64,000 nucleotides of DNA from Thermoanaerobaculia bacterium. Lineage in GTDB: Bacteria; Acidobacteriota; Thermoanaerobaculia; Multivoradales; Multivoraceae. The notes below the pieces were generated by a model. The model had not been told where the DNA came from. It did no database searches and was given only the letters and a program-made list of their open reading frames with translations. A program made the position numbers and the translations under genes. The DNA is taken from positions 2,022,797 through 2,086,796 of the forward strand of contig OY762911.1 in assembly GCA_963666565.1 (NCBI GenBank), read 5' to 3'. Numbering within the stretch: the first letter of the stretch is position 1; each line of letters opens with the position of its first letter. This document shows, piece by piece, positions 3,500 to 9,178 of this stretch.

Positions 3500-3550
3500 G
3501 GCGCGGGCTCAGGATTGGCGCCCGCGTCGGGGTGGCGTAGGGTAACGGCC

Positions 3551-3769
3551 ATGCGGACGAAGGTGGAGCTCGACGACGAACTCGTGGCCGAGGCGAGTCG
3601 CTACGCGAACCGAACGGGCCGGACTCTCGGGGCGCTGATCGAGGAGGGCCTGCGCCTCGTGGTCCCCCTTCGGCAGTCACGTGGACCTGCGGAACGGGTG
3701 GAGTTATTGACCGGCGGCAAGGGCGGATTGATGCCCGGCGTCAAGAAGGACGGCTTCAATCACCTCTGA
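3551..3769 (+). CDS. Ribbon-helix-helix / VapB-like type II antitoxin (orphan)
   Basis: MRTKVELDDELVAEASRYANRTGRTLGALIEEGLRLVV resembles VapB/RHH antitoxins; no cognate toxin downstream. Confidence 0.5.
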   Translation: MRTKVELDDELVAEASRYANRTGRTLGALIEEGLRLVVPLRQSRGPAERVELLTGGKGGLMPGVKKDGFNHL

Positions 3770-4423
3770 TCAGTCGCGCAAGGGGCCCGATCGCTCGCCG
3801 TCGGCAAACGCGCTCTGGAACTCCGGCCTGCCTTCGAGCCGGCCCATGTAGGCGACGGTGTTTGGGTACCTTTCGTCCAGTACGCCCAGCCGCTGCGCCA
3901 AGGCCAGCGAGTATCCCATCATGATGTCGGCGGCGGTCAGGTCGTCGCCGAGCAGGTAGTCGCGGCCTTCGAGTGTCGCTTCGACCGCGTCGAGGCAGAT
4001 CTCGGCGCGCTCGCGGCCGTCCTCGACGACGGCCGGGATGCGCTCCGGTGCCGGCTTGAGGATGCGGTGGTGGACCATGTCGCCGAGCGGACGCGCCAGG
4101 CTCGCCTCGGCGAACCAGGACCACTGAAGGAACAGCGCGCTTTCGGGGCTGCCCGCAGGCGGCTGCAGGCGGCCTTTCCCGTATCGCTCCAGGATGTAGT
4201 GGACCATCGCGCCGGACTCGATCATGGTGAAGGGCTTGCCCTTCTCGTCGACGTCCGTCATGGCCGGCACCTTGCCGATCGGGTTGAGCCGCCGCCATTC
4301 GGCCGACTTGCGGTACTCCGGGCTGAAGTCGACCGGGACGACTTCGTACGGGAGATCCAACTCCTCGCACAGCCAGATGACCCGTGCGGAGCGGGTCCGC
4401 GGCACGTGGTAGATCGTGATCAC
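3770..4423 (-). CDS. Glutathione S-transferase
   Basis: GST N-terminal thioredoxin-like domain (IYHVPRTRSARVIWLCEELDLPYE) and C-terminal helical domain. Confidence 0.85.
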   Translation of the reverse strand: MITIYHVPRTRSARVIWLCEELDLPYEVVPVDFSPEYRKSAEWRRLNPIGKVPAMTDVDEKGKPFTMIESGAMVHYILERYGKGRLQPPAGSPESALFLQWSWFAEASLARPLGDMVHHRILKPAPERIPAVVEDGRERAEICLDAVEATLEGRDYLLGDDLTAADIMMGYSLALAQRLGVLDERYPNTVAYMGRLEGRPEFQSAFADGERSGPLRD

Positions 4424-4456: not shown

Positions 4457-5323
4457 CTACGCCAGAGCGCGCTCGAACAGGGCGAGCAGTCGGCTCCACG
4501 CCCGCTCCGCCTGAGCCTCGTTGTAGACCGGCGTGTCCGGCGGGCACCAGCCGTGCATCGCGCCCTCGTAGACCTCGATCTCGGCCGGCAGGCCGGCGGC
4601 CTCGAACGTCTCGCGCAGCACGTCCTTGGCCTCGGGCTGGCGCTGGTCGTCGTTCTCGGCGATCGCGAACAGGTAGTGCGCCGTCATGTCCTTCACGAGG
4701 AGGTGTGGGCTGTCCGGCTGATCCGTGACGAGTCCGCCGCCGTGGAAGGAGGCGCCGGCGCCGATGCGGTCGGGCAGCGCGGCCGCCGTCCGCATCGTCA
4801 TCGGGCCGCCCATGCAGTAGCCCATCGTTCCCATCTTCCGGTCGCTGTCGACGGACGACTGGCCGTCCAGGAAGCTCACGAAGGCCTTCGCGTCCGTCAC
4901 GTTGGTCTCGGGACTCAGCGAACCCATCAGCGGCCGCAGCGTCTCGCGCAAGGCGGCGAAGTCGGTGCCGTCCGCGATGGGCGCCTTCTTCGACCGGTAG
5001 TACTGGTTGACGGCCAGGACGGAGTAGCCCGATTCCGCGAGGCGCGTCGCCATCTGCCGCATCGCCGGCCGCAGGCCGAACGCGTCCGGCCAGATGAGGA
5101 CGCCCGGATGGGCGCCGTTCGCCGGGTGGACGAAGTAGCTGTCGCAGACGCCGTCGGGTGTCGTGATCTCGATCTCGGAGTCGGTGACGTTCAGGGCGTT
5201 CGCCGCCCGCGGCAGCAGGATCGTCAGGCCCGCGCCGGCCGAGACGGCGCCGAACTCCCGACGGGTCAGCCGCTTCCCTTGCAGGTACCGGGCGTTCTCG
5301 GCATCGGTTCTGTCGTCACACAT
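4457..5323 (-). CDS. Dienelactone hydrolase family protein, TAT signal
   Basis: RREFGAVSAGAGL twin-arginine signal; DLH-like motifs GYCMGG and an HGG region. Confidence 0.8.
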   Translation of the reverse strand: MCDDRTDAENARYLQGKRLTRREFGAVSAGAGLTILLPRAANALNVTDSEIEITTPDGVCDSYFVHPANGAHPGVLIWPDAFGLRPAMRQMATRLAESGYSVLAVNQYYRSKKAPIADGTDFAALRETLRPLMGSLSPETNVTDAKAFVSFLDGQSSVDSDRKMGTMGYCMGGPMTMRTAAALPDRIGAGASFHGGGLVTDQPDSPHLLVKDMTAHYLFAIAENDDQRQPEAKDVLRETFEAAGLPAEIEVYEGAMHGWCPPDTPVYNEAQAERAWSRLLALFERALA

Positions 5324-5356: not shown

Positions 5357-5512
5357 TCAGGCCGCTTCATGGATGGTCCGTCCCTCGCCCCGCGCCGCCG
5401 AGCCGAAGAGGATGATCTTCTCCGGCTGGGCAACGTCCACGATGCACCGGACGATCTTGTCCAGGAGGTCGGGGTCGAGGGGGCGTGTGCCGGTTTGCGG
5501 CGGCTCGGTCAT
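5357..5512 (-). pseudogene. Nucleotidyltransferase (MNT-like) domain fragment
   Basis: IILFGSAARGEG nucleotidyltransferase motif, but only about 50 aa precede the stop; probably a truncated remnant. Confidence 0.3.
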
Positions 5513-5610
5513 TGGAACGAGTCTACAGGCCGCCGTTCCGTTTCGGGCCGTTCGGCGCACGCCCGCACGACGGGACGGGGTACCGGCGGCACTTCCATCG
5601 TGTGCTTCTG

Positions 5611-5640
5611 TTGCAATGGACTAATCGATGGTCCAGAATG
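5611..5640 (+). promoter_or_regulatory. Putative promoter/operator of the phd-vapC operon (TTGCAA-N17-CAGAAT with imperfect palindrome GGACTAATCGATGGTCC)
   Basis: A -35/-10-like pair overlapping a palindrome about 40-60 bp upstream of the antitoxin ATG. Type II TA operons are usually autoregulated at such operators. Coordinates approximate. Confidence 0.3.
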
Positions 5641-5674
5641 GGCGAGCCGAGTCCAATGACCTGAGGCCGTTCCC

Positions 5675-5932
5675 ATGCAAATCTCCGTATCCGAGGCCAA
5701 GGCCAAGCTGACTGAACTCGTCCGGCGCGCCGAAGCCGGACACGACGTGGTACTTACTCGTCATGGCCGGGCAACGGTCGCCCTGGTTCCCGTTCGGGCG
5801 CGGCGCGATCCCGAGGCGCGACGGGCCGTGATCGCCTCCGTGCGCGCCGCCGCCGCGGGCAAGGCGGAGATCGGCGCCAGCGCCGCCCGGAGCCAGGACT
5901 TTCTCTACGGCGACAGCGGTCTGCCAGAGTGA
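5675..5932 (+). CDS. Phd/YefM-family type II antitoxin
   Basis: MQISVSEAKAKLTELVRRAEAGHDVVLTRHGRATVALVP is a canonical Phd/YefM N-terminus; 4-nt overlap (GTGA) with the downstream PIN gene. Confidence 0.75.
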   Translation: MQISVSEAKAKLTELVRRAEAGHDVVLTRHGRATVALVPVRARRDPEARRAVIASVRAAAAGKAEIGASAARSQDFLYGDSGLPE

Positions 5933-6309
5933 TTGCCGTAGACACGTCCGCCCTGATGGCCGTTCTGCTGGACGAGCCGACCGCGGGAGATTGTGCTGAG
6001 GTGCTGGCGAGCGAGCGCTGCGCGATTTCCGCGGCTACGGTCGCCGAAGCGTTGATCGTGGCCGATCGCCGAGGCTTGCGTTCGGAGATGGCCGGCTTGA
6101 TCGACGGCCTGGGCCTTGAGGTCGTCAGCGTGTCGGCGGCGGCAGCCCGCCGGGTTGCTGACGCTTATGCGCGATGGGGTAAGGGCGTGCATGCCTCCGC
6201 ACTGAACTTCGGCGATTGCTTCGCCTACGACCTGGCCAAGACCAATGATTGCCCCTTGCTCTACGTTGGGCTGGATTTCGGACGGACCGACGTTGACGCT
6301 GCCATGTAG
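5929..6309 (+). CDS. vapC: VapC-family PIN-domain toxin
   Basis: IAVDTSALMAVLLDEP PIN N-terminus with conserved acidic residues; translationally coupled to phd. Confidence 0.8.
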   Translation: MIAVDTSALMAVLLDEPTAGDCAEVLASERCAISAATVAEALIVADRRGLRSEMAGLIDGLGLEVVSVSAAAARRVADAYARWGKGVHASALNFGDCFAYDLAKTNDCPLLYVGLDFGRTDVDAAM

Positions 6310-6349
6310 GCGATGCCCGGACATGGCACGCTGTTCGCCTCCAACTGCC

Positions 6350-6826
6350 TTAGCCCCACCACACGCCGCAGTCCCTCGCCTGGAGTTCCCGTGCCAACGC
6401 CCTCTCCATGTCTTTGGCCTGATCGGCTGACACGGAGGCTGAACCCACTAGAGGACGCTTGCCGAAGTCTCTGACGAACCCCTTGCCGGCTTGGTAGTTC
6501 CTCTTGTGTCGCTTGAAACGACGCTCGGGCTTGAGTCCGGTTTCGCCCACGTAAAAGAACTGCTTACGGTTCTCCTCCCGGTAGTGAGGGTTCTTCTCCC
6601 GGAACTTCGCTTTCTCCCGCCACACAGACCGGTCAAGGAGAACCACGTAGAGGTTCCGCTCCCGTCCCCCCGGCGGGACCGCGGGGTACCGGCTCAGCAC
6701 GGAGTCGATGGCCTCGCGGACCAACTGGGTCGCTGGCCGAGCCCGCCGCCTTCGGATGAGCTCTATGGCCGCATAGGTGGCTGCTGCGCCAGCGCCAACT
6801 GCGATGGGAATGAGGGGGACGGCCAC
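6350..6826 (-). CDS. Membrane-anchored GIY-YIG-like nuclease family protein (putative)
   Basis: N-terminal TM helix; NLYVVLLD...FFYVGETGLKPERRFKRHKRN resembles the GIY-YIG core; local GC lower (about 58 percent). Confidence 0.4.
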   Translation of the reverse strand: MAVPLIPIAVGAGAAATYAAIELIRRRRARPATQLVREAIDSVLSRYPAVPPGGRERNLYVVLLDRSVWREKAKFREKNPHYREENRKQFFYVGETGLKPERRFKRHKRNYQAGKGFVRDFGKRPLVGSASVSADQAKDMERALARELQARDCGVWWG

Positions 6827-6854: not shown

Positions 6855-7487
6855 CTACACGTGGCTCTCGCCGGGCTCGTGCTGGCAGCCACGGAAACGC
6901 TCGACGCGGACCCGGTCGGGCAGCCCTAGCGCTTCCGTGCGTCCGACCTTCGAGGTGTAGAAGGCGAACAGCGTACGCCGCTTCAGGTCGCTGAAGAAAG
7001 CGGCGCCGGCGAGCAGTTCCGGCGCGTGTTCCTCGTGCTCGTCGCTGATCTCGCGCAGCATGTCGAGTTGGCGAGCCGCGTCGAGTGCGACGAAGGACGA
7101 GCCGTGCACCTCCGCCGCGCGCCGGTCGATCCAGTCCAGGCCGCCGAGCGCGGCCAACTGCTCGTCGCCGTCGGCGAGCGAGAGTTCGAGGTCGATGAAC
7201 TCGTGGACGGCGGCGTCTCGGGCGCCGGGAGTGTCCGTGCGCGGCAGGATGTGCTCGCAGAGCACGGCGAGCAGTTCGCCCTGGGCCTGCGTCAGCAGCC
7301 GGGGCGTCCAGCCGGCGCCCTCGGCCTGGTAGGCGGCCACCGCCGGGATCGCGGCCCGAATCGGTTCGGCCTGCAGCGTGGCGTAGCCGAAGGCGCCCGC
7401 GCCGGCCGCCAGGACCTTCCGTCTCGTGGTCCGTCCGCCCGCGCTTGCCCCCGCGGCGGTGGTCGCGCCGTTCGTCGGCTTGTTCAT
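6855..7487 (-). CDS. Gluconate 2-dehydrogenase subunit 3 family protein (TAT signal)
   Basis: TRRKVLAAGAGAFGYATL twin-arginine signal; small-subunit partner of GMC dehydrogenases; start overlaps the GMC stop (ATGA). Confidence 0.65.
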   Translation of the reverse strand: MNKPTNGATTAAGASAGGRTTRRKVLAAGAGAFGYATLQAEPIRAAIPAVAAYQAEGAGWTPRLLTQAQGELLAVLCEHILPRTDTPGARDAAVHEFIDLELSLADGDEQLAALGGLDWIDRRAAEVHGSSFVALDAARQLDMLREISDEHEEHAPELLAGAAFFSDLKRRTLFAFYTSKVGRTEALGLPDRVRVERFRGCQHEPGESHV

Positions 7488-9178
7488 GCGAGTTCTCCGC
7501 GCTTGTGCCGCTCGACGACGTACTCGGACGAGCGCAGCGCCAGCGCCATCATGGTCAAGGTCGGGTTGACGCAGCCGATGCTGACGTAGCAGGAGCCGTC
7601 CATGACGAACAGGTTCTTCACGGTGTGGGACTGCTGGTACTGGTTCATCCAGGAGGTCTTCGGATCGTCGCCCATGCGGGCCGTGCCGACCTCGTGGATG
7701 CCCGATCCCAGCGGCGCCGGCTCCGTGTTCTGGGTGATGTTCGTGCAGCCGAGCGCCTCCAGCATGGCCCGGCCTTCCGCGATGATGTCCTGGACCATCG
7801 CGTACTCGTTGCTGCCGAGGGTGCAGTTCATCCGGAGCACGGGCACGCCCCACTTGTCGGTCACGTCCGCGTCGAGCGCGACGCGGTTCTCGGCCCGCGG
7901 CAGGATCTCGCCGAAGCCGCCGAGGCCGATCGTCGAGACGGTGCTCGATTCGACCATCCGCTTGAAGTCGGCGCCGAAGCCGGGAATGCCGTTGCCGTGC
8001 TGCCAGGTGGTGATGTTCTCGCCGCCCTGGTAGCCGTAGCCGCGGATGAAGTTCGGGTTCTTCGTTGCCGCGTCCTTCAGGTTCTGGAAGCGGGGTACGT
8101 AGATCCCGTTCGGTCGATTCGCGCGCTCCGGTTGAGCGCCGGCCCGCGCCTCCAGGACGCCGCGTACTCCGGTCGCGTAGATGTGGTCCATCACGTAGCG
8201 GCCCAGGCAGTCGCTGTCGTTGGCGAGGCCGCCCTCGGCCGAGTTGAGCAGGATGCGGGTCGAAGCGAGGGTCGAGGCGCAGAGCACGACGACGTCGGCC
8301 TTGGCTTCCCGGGTCAGGTCCGTGTTCTTGTCGACGTAGGTGACGCCCGAGGCCAGGTCGCCGGCCTTCATGTCGACCTTGATGACGGCGGCGTCCGGGA
8401 CCAGGGTGAACCGGCCGGTCGCCTCGCAGTCGACGAGGGTCGTCTGCGGCGAGTTGAAGTAGGAGTTCGTCCGGCAGCCGTAGTGGCAGGGGCCGCAGTA
8501 GTGGCACATGTCGCGGCCGTTGTGCCGGCGGGTGAGGACGGCGTTGCGGCCGATCGTCATCGGCCGGTTGAACTTCTCGGCCAGGGTCTCCTTCAGCATC
8601 GCCTCGCCGCACGTGAAGGCCATCGGCGGCAGGAAGTCGCCGTCCGGCAGGATCTCCAGACCCTCCTTGCGGCCGTTGACGCCGATGTAGCGTTCGATCC
8701 GGTCGTAGTACGGCGCCAGGTCGGCGTAGCCGATCGGCCAGTCCATGCCGTAGCCATCGAGGCTGGCCGCCTTGAAGTCGTAGTCGCTCATCCGGTACGA
8801 CTGCCGCGCCCACATGATCGAGCGGCCGCCGACGACGTTGCCCTGGATCCAGTTGAAGTGGGTGCCGGGGGCCTCGGTGTAGGGGTTGTCGACGTCGTCG
8901 ATGAAGAAGTCCGCGTTGACCTCGGTGCAGGCGTAGCAGTACGACTGGCGGTGCCGCCGCTGGAGCAGTTCGTTGCGCGGGTCGGGGCGGCCGCGGAGTT
9001 CCATGTCGTGCGGCAGGGTGTGCTCGCGGAAGTCGTTCTCGGGGTCGAAGGCGCGGCCGGCCTCGAGCATCAGCACGTCCATCCCGGCTTCGGTGAGGAC
9101 CTTGGCGGCCCAGCCGCCGGTGGCGCCGGAGCCGACGACGATGGCGTCCCAGGTCTTCGTGTCGGACGTCTGTTTCAT
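7484..9178 (-). CDS. GMC family FAD-dependent oxidoreductase (gluconate 2-dehydrogenase flavoprotein-like)
   Basis: WDAIVVGSGATGGWAAKVL Rossmann motif; GMC C-terminal HEVGTARMG and CVNPTLTMMALA motifs. Confidence 0.9.
   Translation of the reverse strand: MKQTSDTKTWDAIVVGSGATGGWAAKVLTEAGMDVLMLEAGRAFDPENDFREHTLPHDMELRGRPDPRNELLQRRHRQSYCYACTEVNADFFIDDVDNPYTEAPGTHFNWIQGNVVGGRSIMWARQSYRMSDYDFKAASLDGYGMDWPIGYADLAPYYDRIERYIGVNGRKEGLEILPDGDFLPPMAFTCGEAMLKETLAEKFNRPMTIGRNAVLTRRHNGRDMCHYCGPCHYGCRTNSYFNSPQTTLVDCEATGRFTLVPDAAVIKVDMKAGDLASGVTYVDKNTDLTREAKADVVVLCASTLASTRILLNSAEGGLANDSDCLGRYVMDHIYATGVRGVLEARAGAQPERANRPNGIYVPRFQNLKDAATKNPNFIRGYGYQGGENITTWQHGNGIPGFGADFKRMVESSTVSTIGLGGFGEILPRAENRVALDADVTDKWGVPVLRMNCTLGSNEYAMVQDIIAEGRAMLEALGCTNITQNTEPAPLGSGIHEVGTARMGDDPKTSWMNQYQQSHTVKNLFVMDGSCYVSIGCVNPTLTMMALALRSSEYVVERHKRGELA

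Follow-up and report, generated by a model that had tools for sequence, protein, structure and literature searches.

The stretch of DNA analysed here, 64 kb of contig OY762911.1 from a Thermoanaerobaculia bacterium (the window; 70.1% GC), contains a short islet between the genes for gluconate-2-dehydrogenase subunit 3 (G2DH3) and dienelactone hydrolase (DLH). The islet combines a Phd/YefM-PIN toxin-antitoxin (TA) pair, a remnant of an MNT-type nucleotidyltransferase antitoxin gene, and a gene for a 158-amino-acid (aa) protein with a predicted membrane anchor and a C-terminal GIY-YIG-like domain. Our main new observation is that this last gene, called the nuclease gene below, differs between close relatives far more than the genes around it do. 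Taken together, the statements that the Phd-VapC pair is intact, that the MNT gene is a remnant and that the anchored GIY-YIG nuclease is independent of the TA pair are made with high confidence. The explanation that best covers the whole locus is a three-module islet whose nuclease most likely is a conflict or defence nuclease at the membrane; we give this explanation an even chance. Neither the TA pair nor the MNT remnant is unusual. It is the anchored nuclease branch that behaves like an arms-race gene, always at one address.

A hypervariable gene at a fixed address

Contigs of sponge-associated Holophagales that share the slot between G2DH3 and DLH served as related loci (numbered with the prefix L), and all identities in this comparison are protein identities relative to the window copy. 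The flanks were well conserved (GMC oxidoreductase 90-95%, G2DH3 90-94%, DLH 88-93%, GST 82-91%). The same was found for the PIN toxin (91-98%) and for the Phd antitoxin, which reached 91-94% in L001, L002, L006 and L007 and 85-86% in L009, L013 and L014. Identity of the nuclease fell from 96% in L002 and 81% in L001 to 48% in L008 and 41% in L006, and tblastn gave 38-40% in L009, L013 and L014. The L008 protein shared 53-57% with homologues from Longimicrobiales (Gemmatimonadota), more than with the window allele. In the three closest genomes the ratio of nonsynonymous to synonymous divergence (dN/dS) was 0.43-0.50 for the nuclease gene versus 0.07-0.21 for its neighbors. Between the window and L001, synonymous divergence (dS) was 0.26 for the nuclease gene and 0.25-0.55 for the neighbors. 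Because dS is only 0.25-0.55, alleles of about 40% identity do not result from divergence in situ, which points to replacement by distant alleles. GC content at third codon positions (GC3) of the nuclease gene was 0.70-0.77 in every lineage, as against 0.85-0.95 in the flanks. The nuclease gene is the only hypervariable gene in the slot, and its address is fixed.

Between the window and L002 dS was 0.20-0.40 for the flanks, 0.11 for PIN and 0.03 for the nuclease gene, the two latter values resting on only 10 and 4 synonymous differences, respectively. This suggests a recent exchange of the nuclease/PIN part of the islet between lineages.

The slot is occupied by the nuclease gene throughout, whereas the TA genes vary in presence. 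The window carries the nuclease gene, PIN-Phd and the deleted MNT gene, and L002-L005 the same set with an intact MNT gene. The arrangement of L002 is also found in L007 and L011, where the nuclease gene has a frameshifting internal deletion of 130 nt. L001 has the nuclease gene and PIN-Phd and no MNT gene. In L006, PIN-Phd comes first, the nuclease gene next and MNT-HEPN last. L013 and L014 carry the nuclease gene, Phd without PIN, and MNT-HEPN; the 1.6-kb contig L009 carries the nuclease gene, Phd without PIN, MNT, and the start of HEPN at the contig end. In L008 the nuclease gene is accompanied by an unrelated 90-aa gene and no TA genes. Except in L006, G2DH3 is followed on the same strand, after 28-80 nt, by the nuclease gene. 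No empty site was found among the at least nine related loci, all of which carry the nuclease gene or its remnant. An earlier note on this DNA had considered that the gene might turn out to be a conserved core-genome membrane protein without profile support as GIY-YIG. The gene is indeed syntenically fixed in the clade, but it is not core-like in sequence, and the profile support is given below.

As part of the explanation given even odds above, we regard the slot as a variable accessory islet of three independent modules between the conserved G2DH3 and DLH genes of a sponge-associated Holophagales bacterium. The locus offers a clean record, in uncultured sponge symbionts, of how modules are gained, lost and degraded: for each of the PIN, HEPN, MNT and nuclease genes there is a different lineage in which it has been deleted.

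Three of the related loci show further details. In L007 (5920-6270) and L011 (400-760) the start and the anchor codons of the nuclease gene are kept; the 130-nt deletion causes a frameshift, and the codons for the basic cluster, the linker and the first catalytic strand are lost with it. Protein P0004, annotated with 90 aa, is what remains downstream. As judged from the reading frame, the nuclease gene is inactivated in both loci. L006 contains at 5870-5945, just upstream of the nuclease gene, a relic of the G2DH3 3' end (about 70 nt, about 80% identical as estimated by eye). It is separated from the real G2DH3 gene by the PIN-Phd cassette, and therefore a rearrangement or cassette transfer took place. 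The 90-aa protein following the nuclease in L008 (6527-6799) has a C-terminal hydrophobic helix and a CCDC90-like (DUF1640-type) match with an E-value of 4e-5, below threshold.

An undescribed GIY-YIG family

The 158-aa protein consists of a hydrophobic anchor, a basic cluster, a variable linker helix and the C-terminal GIY-YIG-like domain. Its start codon was confirmed by the N-terminus M-A-V/L-P-L-I-P-I, which is conserved in seven loci. A word-indexed search of 5.8 billion proteins resulted in four relatives only, all from metagenome-assembled genomes of Holophagales/Acidobacteria. An exhaustive HMMER search of 1.84 billion cluster representatives yielded 536 matches (clusters at 50% identity) with E<=1e-3; residues 55-157 were the aligned part in every case. 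The family alignment comprised 102 sequences. In this alignment Y92, G94 and R103 are invariant, and Y60, N79, T96, P100, H107 and E141 are conserved in at least 90% of the sequences. These positions include the GIY tyrosine, the YIG Tyr-x-Gly, and the arginine, histidine and glutamate of the GIY-YIG active site. An insertion of about 20 residues with an F-R-x-x-N-P motif separates the GIY and YIG strands.

The Pfam model PF01541 matched the window protein with 21.4 bits (E 3e-4) and 61 of the 102 family members at E<=0.01 (best E 2.3e-6). Together with the conserved catalytic residues this bears out the GIY-YIG-like core that had been read from the window protein. An AlphaFold model based on five sequences (predicted local distance difference test score, pLDDT, 61) was replaced by one based on the 102-sequence alignment (pLDDT 88.6). 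The latter displays the beta-beta-alpha-(alpha)-beta-alpha fold of the superfamily, with the catalytic domain of I-TevI as best structural match. Structural support is moderate, because Foldseek found nothing significant for the model in the PDB. Two profiles searched against PDB sequences also gave nothing meaningful. An hhalign comparison with a single I-TevI sequence equated Y92, R103 and H107 with Y17, R27 and H31; its probability was low because the template was a single sequence. From its residues, the C-terminal domain is a member of the GIY-YIG superfamily with an intact active site and would be expected to have nuclease activity.

Scans of the 158-aa protein against PHROGs and NCBIfam gave no match, and the NCBIfam scan of the family was also empty. 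Neither a specific model in Pfam, NCBIfam or PADLOC nor literature on the family was found, so by these searches the family is undescribed and uncharacterised. Outside the clade most members are bare domains of 105-120 aa. Others carry a Tudor-like DUF3553 (7 of 102), TPR repeats or a degenerate tandem copy. DUF3553 is reported to be closest to the RNA-polymerase-interacting domain of PcrA/UvrD (PMC6511836). In its architectures the family looks like a single nuclease core with interchangeable targeting modules. The metagenome scan added unanchored members only, and the scan of viral contigs detected no relatives of the 158-aa family.

Tandem duplications of the domain were seen in P0018, P0030, P0065, P0069, P0119, L058, L059 and L061. 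In P0018, P0065, P0069, P0119, L058, L059 and L061 the first copy lacks and the second copy has the Y-V-G motif. The tandem members suggest a domain that may work as a dimer with one active site.

Predicted membrane anchor and linker

The predicted anchor (MAVPLIPIAVGAGAAATYAAIELI) is followed by the basic cluster RRRRAR. The maximum of Kyte-Doolittle hydropathy over 19 residues was 1.70 in the window anchor and 1.6-2.3 in other alleles. The start M-A-V/L-P-L-I-P-I-A, an Ala/Gly-rich helix and basic residues recur in P0001, P0003, P0005, P0008, P0009, P0012, P0017 and P0027. Across alleles identity was 50% in the anchor, 12% in the linker and 42% in the nuclease domain, with only about 30 residues between anchor and domain. 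Profile and metagenome searches restricted the anchored form to this clade. Hydropathy, basic cluster and conservation across alleles are thus in favor of the membrane-anchored protein that the earlier note had proposed. Membrane insertion with an N-out/C-in topology is predicted, and since RRRRAR follows the helix the nuclease domain should be cytoplasmic by the positive-inside rule.

A CxC ... W-x-C-x-C pattern was observed in the linkers of the anchored alleles P0009, P0012, P0005, P0027, P0054 and L014 4731-5369; the window linker contains no cysteine. The paired cysteines possibly form a small zinc knuckle.

Possible functions of the anchored nuclease

According to our working model, a stand-alone GIY-YIG endonuclease would be tethered to the inner membrane by the conserved N-terminal helix with its domain in the cytoplasm. 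It would be non-specific or weakly specific and would cut DNA that crosses or touches the membrane. A precedent is SNIPE (PD-lambda-1), a GIY-YIG nuclease bound to the membrane, which cuts the DNA of phages while it is being injected (bioRxiv 10.1101/2025.11.03.685801). SNIPE combines an anchor of N-out, C-in topology with DUF4041 and, at its C-terminus, the GIY-YIG domain; the protein without anchor is toxic, DUF4041 is required for DNA binding and defence, and the catalytic glutamate is residue 414 (bioRxiv 10.1101/2025.11.03.685801). Confinement at the membrane would similarly spare the nucleoid and chromosome, and the variable linker and repeated allele replacement would reflect an arms race. 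A conflict gene would account for the hypervariable linker, the replacement of alleles, the atypical composition and the decay in particular lineages. A role of the 158-aa protein in defence is nevertheless only tentatively proposed.

Several observations weigh against this role or against its mechanism. The search of defence-system hidden Markov models which had been suggested as a check was negative: in PADLOC, none of the families matched the 158-aa protein at E<=1, and the 102 family members gave no meaningful match, with one marginal E-value of 0.006. A DNA-binding or sensor domain such as DUF4041 was not recognisable, and Pfam returned GIY-YIG only. The PF01541 score lies below the gathering score of 22.6 bits, and the window allele ends with W-W-G where many family members end with W-W-N or W-S-N, a change of the terminal Asn to Gly. 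The window anchor is Ala/Gly-rich and only marginally like a transmembrane helix, as judged by hydropathy as the sole predictor applied. Furthermore, the gene starts 28 nt 3' of G2DH3 on the same strand, and because of this spacing it may be co-transcribed with the GMC/G2DH3 metabolic operon. The contexts of non-anchored members are heterogeneous (peptidases, an amidase, some type I restriction-modification genes, MNT) and therefore provide no consistent defence-island signal. Among the neighbors of 22 unanchored members from other phyla, HSDR_N occurred three times, Methylase_S twice, MNT three times and DUF4411 twice, the rest being ordinary metabolic genes. These neighbor families hint at residence in variable regions without a constant partner.

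GIY-YIG is the classic fold of free-standing homing endonucleases. The nuclease gene may be seen as a selfish cassette that maintains and spreads itself in the intergenic slot: it would cut naive alleles, and repair of the cut would copy it in. Its hypervariability would then reflect repeated invasions rather than defence. The structural match to I-TevI, the atypical GC3, the xenologous-looking alleles at a fixed intergenic site and the G2DH3 relic beside the L006 allele agree with this explanation, and the degenerate copies in L007 and L011 fit a cycle of invasion and decay. However, apart from the anchor only a catalytic core of about 100 residues was detected and no DNA-binding domain, and an enzyme that cuts the chromosome at specific sites would hardly be expected to keep a conserved membrane anchor. 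The absence of empty sites among the at least nine loci and of relatives in viral contigs also argues against it. We consider a homing cassette improbable.

Distance and orientation to G2DH3, kept in all loci except L006, would also be expected of a small housekeeping or repair nuclease or of an accessory subunit of the GMC/G2DH3 operon, the variability then being due to relaxed constraint. A dN/dS below 1 is in line with this, and the Tudor-like DUF3553 in other members gives a hint of a repair role (PMC6511836). GC3 of the nuclease gene in the window (0.77) is much lower than that of the operon (0.90-0.95), however, and identities of about 40% amid genomes of about 90% are impossible by drift in situ at the dS values given above. 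The gene is a pseudogene in L007 and L011, and the anchored form is restricted to the clade. A housekeeping or operon function thus appears quite improbable.

The earlier note had likened the nuclease and the TA genes to an abortive-infection module; the nuclease might then, for example, be controlled by Phd or PIN. In eight of nine arrangements the nuclease gene adjoins Phd-PIN or Phd alone, and in L009, L013 and L014 it takes the place of PIN beside the retained Phd. But L008 has the nuclease gene without TA genes, L009, L013 and L014 lack PIN, and order and orientation relative to Phd-PIN differ between loci, with the nuclease gene on the other side of the pair in L006. Conservation of Phd and PIN (85-98%) does not co-vary with that of the nuclease (down to about 40%). 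Family members outside the clade have no PIN or Phd neighbors, and PADLOC gave no match for the nuclease or its family. Because of the L008 arrangement, the changes in order and orientation and the lack of co-variation, a three-gene abortive-infection module is very unlikely, and this part of the earlier reading found no support. An inert GIY-YIG-like fold in a small membrane protein with a non-nuclease role is very unlikely as well: the sub-threshold PF01541 score, the empty Foldseek search of the PDB, the terminal Gly and the large insertion between the GIY and YIG strands could be explained in this way, but the two tyrosines, arginine, histidine and glutamate are kept across more than 100 divergent members including the window protein, which an inert fold would not lead one to expect.

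Within the preferred explanation of a conflict or defence nuclease at the membrane, the anchored proteins can be imagined as a minimal single-gene 'entry nuclease' immunity, in which a helix and a bare GIY-YIG core destroy foreign DNA arriving at the inner membrane, whether from phages, plasmids or transformation. This proposal is speculative and rather unlikely as it stands. The hypervariable linker, with CxC...CxC in some alleles, would set the target or partner specificity, and recombination at a fixed hotspot would exchange the alleles within sponge-symbiont populations. If true, the principle of SNIPE, a spatial rather than sequence-based discrimination between self and non-self, would extend to an unrelated and much smaller family. 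More generally, if the gene in this slot does encode a defence nuclease, immunity achieved by confining a non-specific nuclease to the membrane would be known from two independent cases, this one being the smallest so far and hence easy to test and to engineer.

The Phd-PIN pair and its candidate operator

The Phd/YefM antitoxin (85 aa) was identified by PF02604 (E 7.4e-12) and TIGR01552 (E 8.9e-12), and the VapC-type PIN toxin (126 aa) by PF01850 (E 2.2e-14), covering profile positions 1-118 of 120. The start GTG of the toxin gene overlaps the antitoxin stop by 4 nt (GTGA), and the acidic quartet D5, E40, D96 and D116 is present. The vapBC-type pair with 4-nt overlap described before was thus confirmed, and by these features it is an intact, ordinary type II TA pair, in which the Phd/YefM antitoxin would neutralise the VapC PIN RNase.

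Upstream of the antitoxin gene TTGCAA (5611-5616) and CAGAAT (5634-5639) are separated by a spacer of 17 nt. An inverted repeat, TGGAC-N9-GTCCA, fills this spacer and occurs once in the 64 kb where 0.02 occurrences are expected. The Phd upstream regions of eight related loci, whose farther-upstream DNA differs with gene order, were aligned. Homology across the loci begins a few bases 5' of TTGCAA; TTGCAA itself is conserved and the GGAC/GTCC arms are invariant. The 9-10 nt between the arms vary, the inner ATCGAT being specific to the window genome. Invariant arms around a variable centre are what one would expect if a promoter contains an operator that is read through its half-sites. The positions of promoter-like element and palindrome were therefore as previously claimed and the arms are kept in eight loci, although the element agrees with the sigma-70 consensus in only 8 of 12 positions and a consensus promoter scan made no call for it. 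The usual arrangement for autoregulation gains plausibility from the single occurrence and the conserved arms. The antitoxin probably binds this candidate operator, and Phd would repress its own promoter by binding TGGAC-N9-GTCCA in the spacer.

A remnant of a HepT/MNT system

Weak Pfam matches to NTP_transf_2/Polbeta cover residues 35-61 only of the short open reading frame (ORF) upstream of the TA pair. In L002-L005 the MNT orthologue has 114 aa (alignment with L002, L003 and L005). Compared to the orthologues, the window gene has an in-frame internal deletion of 189 nt (63 codons), and the hexamer GCGAGG flanks these 189 nt in the relatives. The remnant retains the N-terminus through ...ILFGSAARGE, with the GS..RGE motif, and the last eight codons (GRTIHEAA*). 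The deleted stretch includes DVDLLVV with the catalytic DxD motif. In a tblastn search of the window with the L002 protein only residues 1-43 matched.

No HEPN gene was found in the window. In L006, L013 and L014 an overlapping HEPN gene follows MNT at the same place, and in L009 its start is seen at the contig end. Hence, the window MNT gene descends from a HepT/MNT pair. It had been described as a truncated MNT gene and HepT/MNT remnant; its origin was correctly recognised, and the lesion is an internal in-frame deletion rather than a truncation. Judged from the alignments, MNT is the dead remnant of a HepT/MNT system that underwent a repeat-mediated in-frame internal deletion. HEPN would have been lost earlier in the lineage, followed by the catalytic core of MNT through the repeat-mediated deletion.

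Layout and composition of the region

Gene order in the window was derived from an ORF listing and Pfam scans (Table 1).

Table 1. Features of the islet and its flanks in the window
Feature	Position	Strand	Basis or remarks
GST	3770-4423	-	
Dienelactone hydrolase (DLH)	4457-5323	-	
Short nucleotidyltransferase-like ORF	5357-5560	-	ORF listing, start GTG 5560
MNT-type nucleotidyltransferase antitoxin gene remnant	5357-5512	-	51 codons from conserved ATG 5512
Deletion junction GCGAGG|G (minus strand) inside MNT remnant	5382-5388	-	Alignment with relatives
Promoter-like element TTGCAA-N17-CAGAAT	5611-5639	+	Sequence, cross-locus conservation
Inverted repeat TGGAC-N9-GTCCA	5617-5635	+	Candidate operator, fills promoter spacer
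Phd/YefM antitoxin	5675-5932	+	PF02604, TIGR01552
PIN toxin	5929-6309	+	PF01850
158-aa ORF, anchor and GIY-YIG-like domain	6350-6826	-	ORF listing, Pfam, family alignment, model
GIY-YIG-like domain	6353-6658	-	Codons 57-158; Y60, Y92-V-G94, R103, H107, E141
Predicted single-pass membrane anchor	6755-6826	-	Codons 1-24 (MAVPLIPIAVGAGAAATYAAIELI); hydropathy, conservation
Gluconate-2-dehydrogenase subunit 3 (G2DH3)	6855-7490	-	
GMC oxidoreductase	7484-9178	-	

The DNA of the 158-aa gene has a GC content of 63.9% with 59.8% in the lowest 400-nt window, not about 58% as estimated before. Its atypical composition, that is a lower-GC islet, was confirmed: GC values that low occurred in only 3.4% of windows of the same size. 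GC3 was 0.77 for both Phd and the 158-aa gene and 0.76 for PIN, versus 0.94 for DLH, 0.90 for G2DH3 and 0.95 for GMC. The clearest compositional signal of the islet is GC3, not GC. Rfam and tRNA scans of the neighborhood gave no matches, and therefore indicate neither a tRNA-linked integration site nor an RNA antitoxin.

A perfect 10-nt inverted repeat (GGTCATTGGA at 5507-5516 and TCCAATGACC at 5652-5661) flanks the stretch that separates the MNT remnant from Phd, its first arm overlapping the MNT start codon. It was rejected as a functional element and is treated as probably due to chance, because the relatives do not conserve it.

A second variable islet is located on the other side of the DLH-GST pair. 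It contains an orphan VapB-type antitoxin gene at 3515-3769 (+), most likely starting with the Met codon at 3551, with an RHH match (PF09957, E 1e-6); its end coincides exactly with the end of the GST gene. In all relatives VapB is followed by a PIN toxin gene of 148-164 aa, and in most it is preceded by a D12-class adenine methyltransferase gene. Both are missing in the window, and the VapB DNA is much more diverged than the surrounding genes (alignment judged by eye).

Comparison with known systems

The Phd-PIN pair corresponds to VapBC systems with a Phd/YefM-fold antitoxin in the full acidic quartet, the upstream antitoxin gene and the 4-nt overlap. The palindrome in the promoter region fits antitoxin autoregulation, and no notable difference was seen in the genes as read here. 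The window MNT is orthologous to the MNT of the MNT-HEPN pairs in L006, L013 and L014. Unlike these pairs, it has no HEPN partner and lacks 63 codons including DxD, which makes it a remnant and not a system.

The 158-aa protein shares with GIY-YIG homing endonucleases (I-TevI, T4 Seg proteins) the catalytic residues, the intergenic slot, the atypical composition and the occurrence of decayed copies. It differs in that its catalytic domain is C-terminal instead of N-terminal, in its anchor and in that no DNA-binding domain was detected; the family showed neither empty sites (at least nine loci) nor phage copies (viral-contig scan). To small stand-alone GIY-YIG (URI) proteins of the YhbQ/COG2827 type it is similar in the core of about 100 residues without an extra DNA-binding domain, and most members of its family are such proteins of 105-120 aa. 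In contrast to this type, the family appears separate by sequence and has the F-R-x-x-N-P insertion and variable N-terminal modules (transmembrane helix, Tudor-like DUF3553, TPR, inactive tandem copy).

The best analogue is SNIPE, although the 158-aa protein is not a member of the SNIPE family. It has no DUF4041 and no PADLOC match, is far smaller and is placed in a different GIY-YIG subfamily with the 20-residue insertion between the GIY and YIG strands, and the anchor sequence is poorly conserved in SNIPE but conserved in the 158-aa alleles. Common to both are the single gene, the variable middle and the C-terminal GIY-YIG domain; the N-terminal single-pass anchor and the cytoplasmic position of the domain are shared as far as predicted for the 158-aa protein. 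In both, homologues differ most in the N-proximal or linker region.

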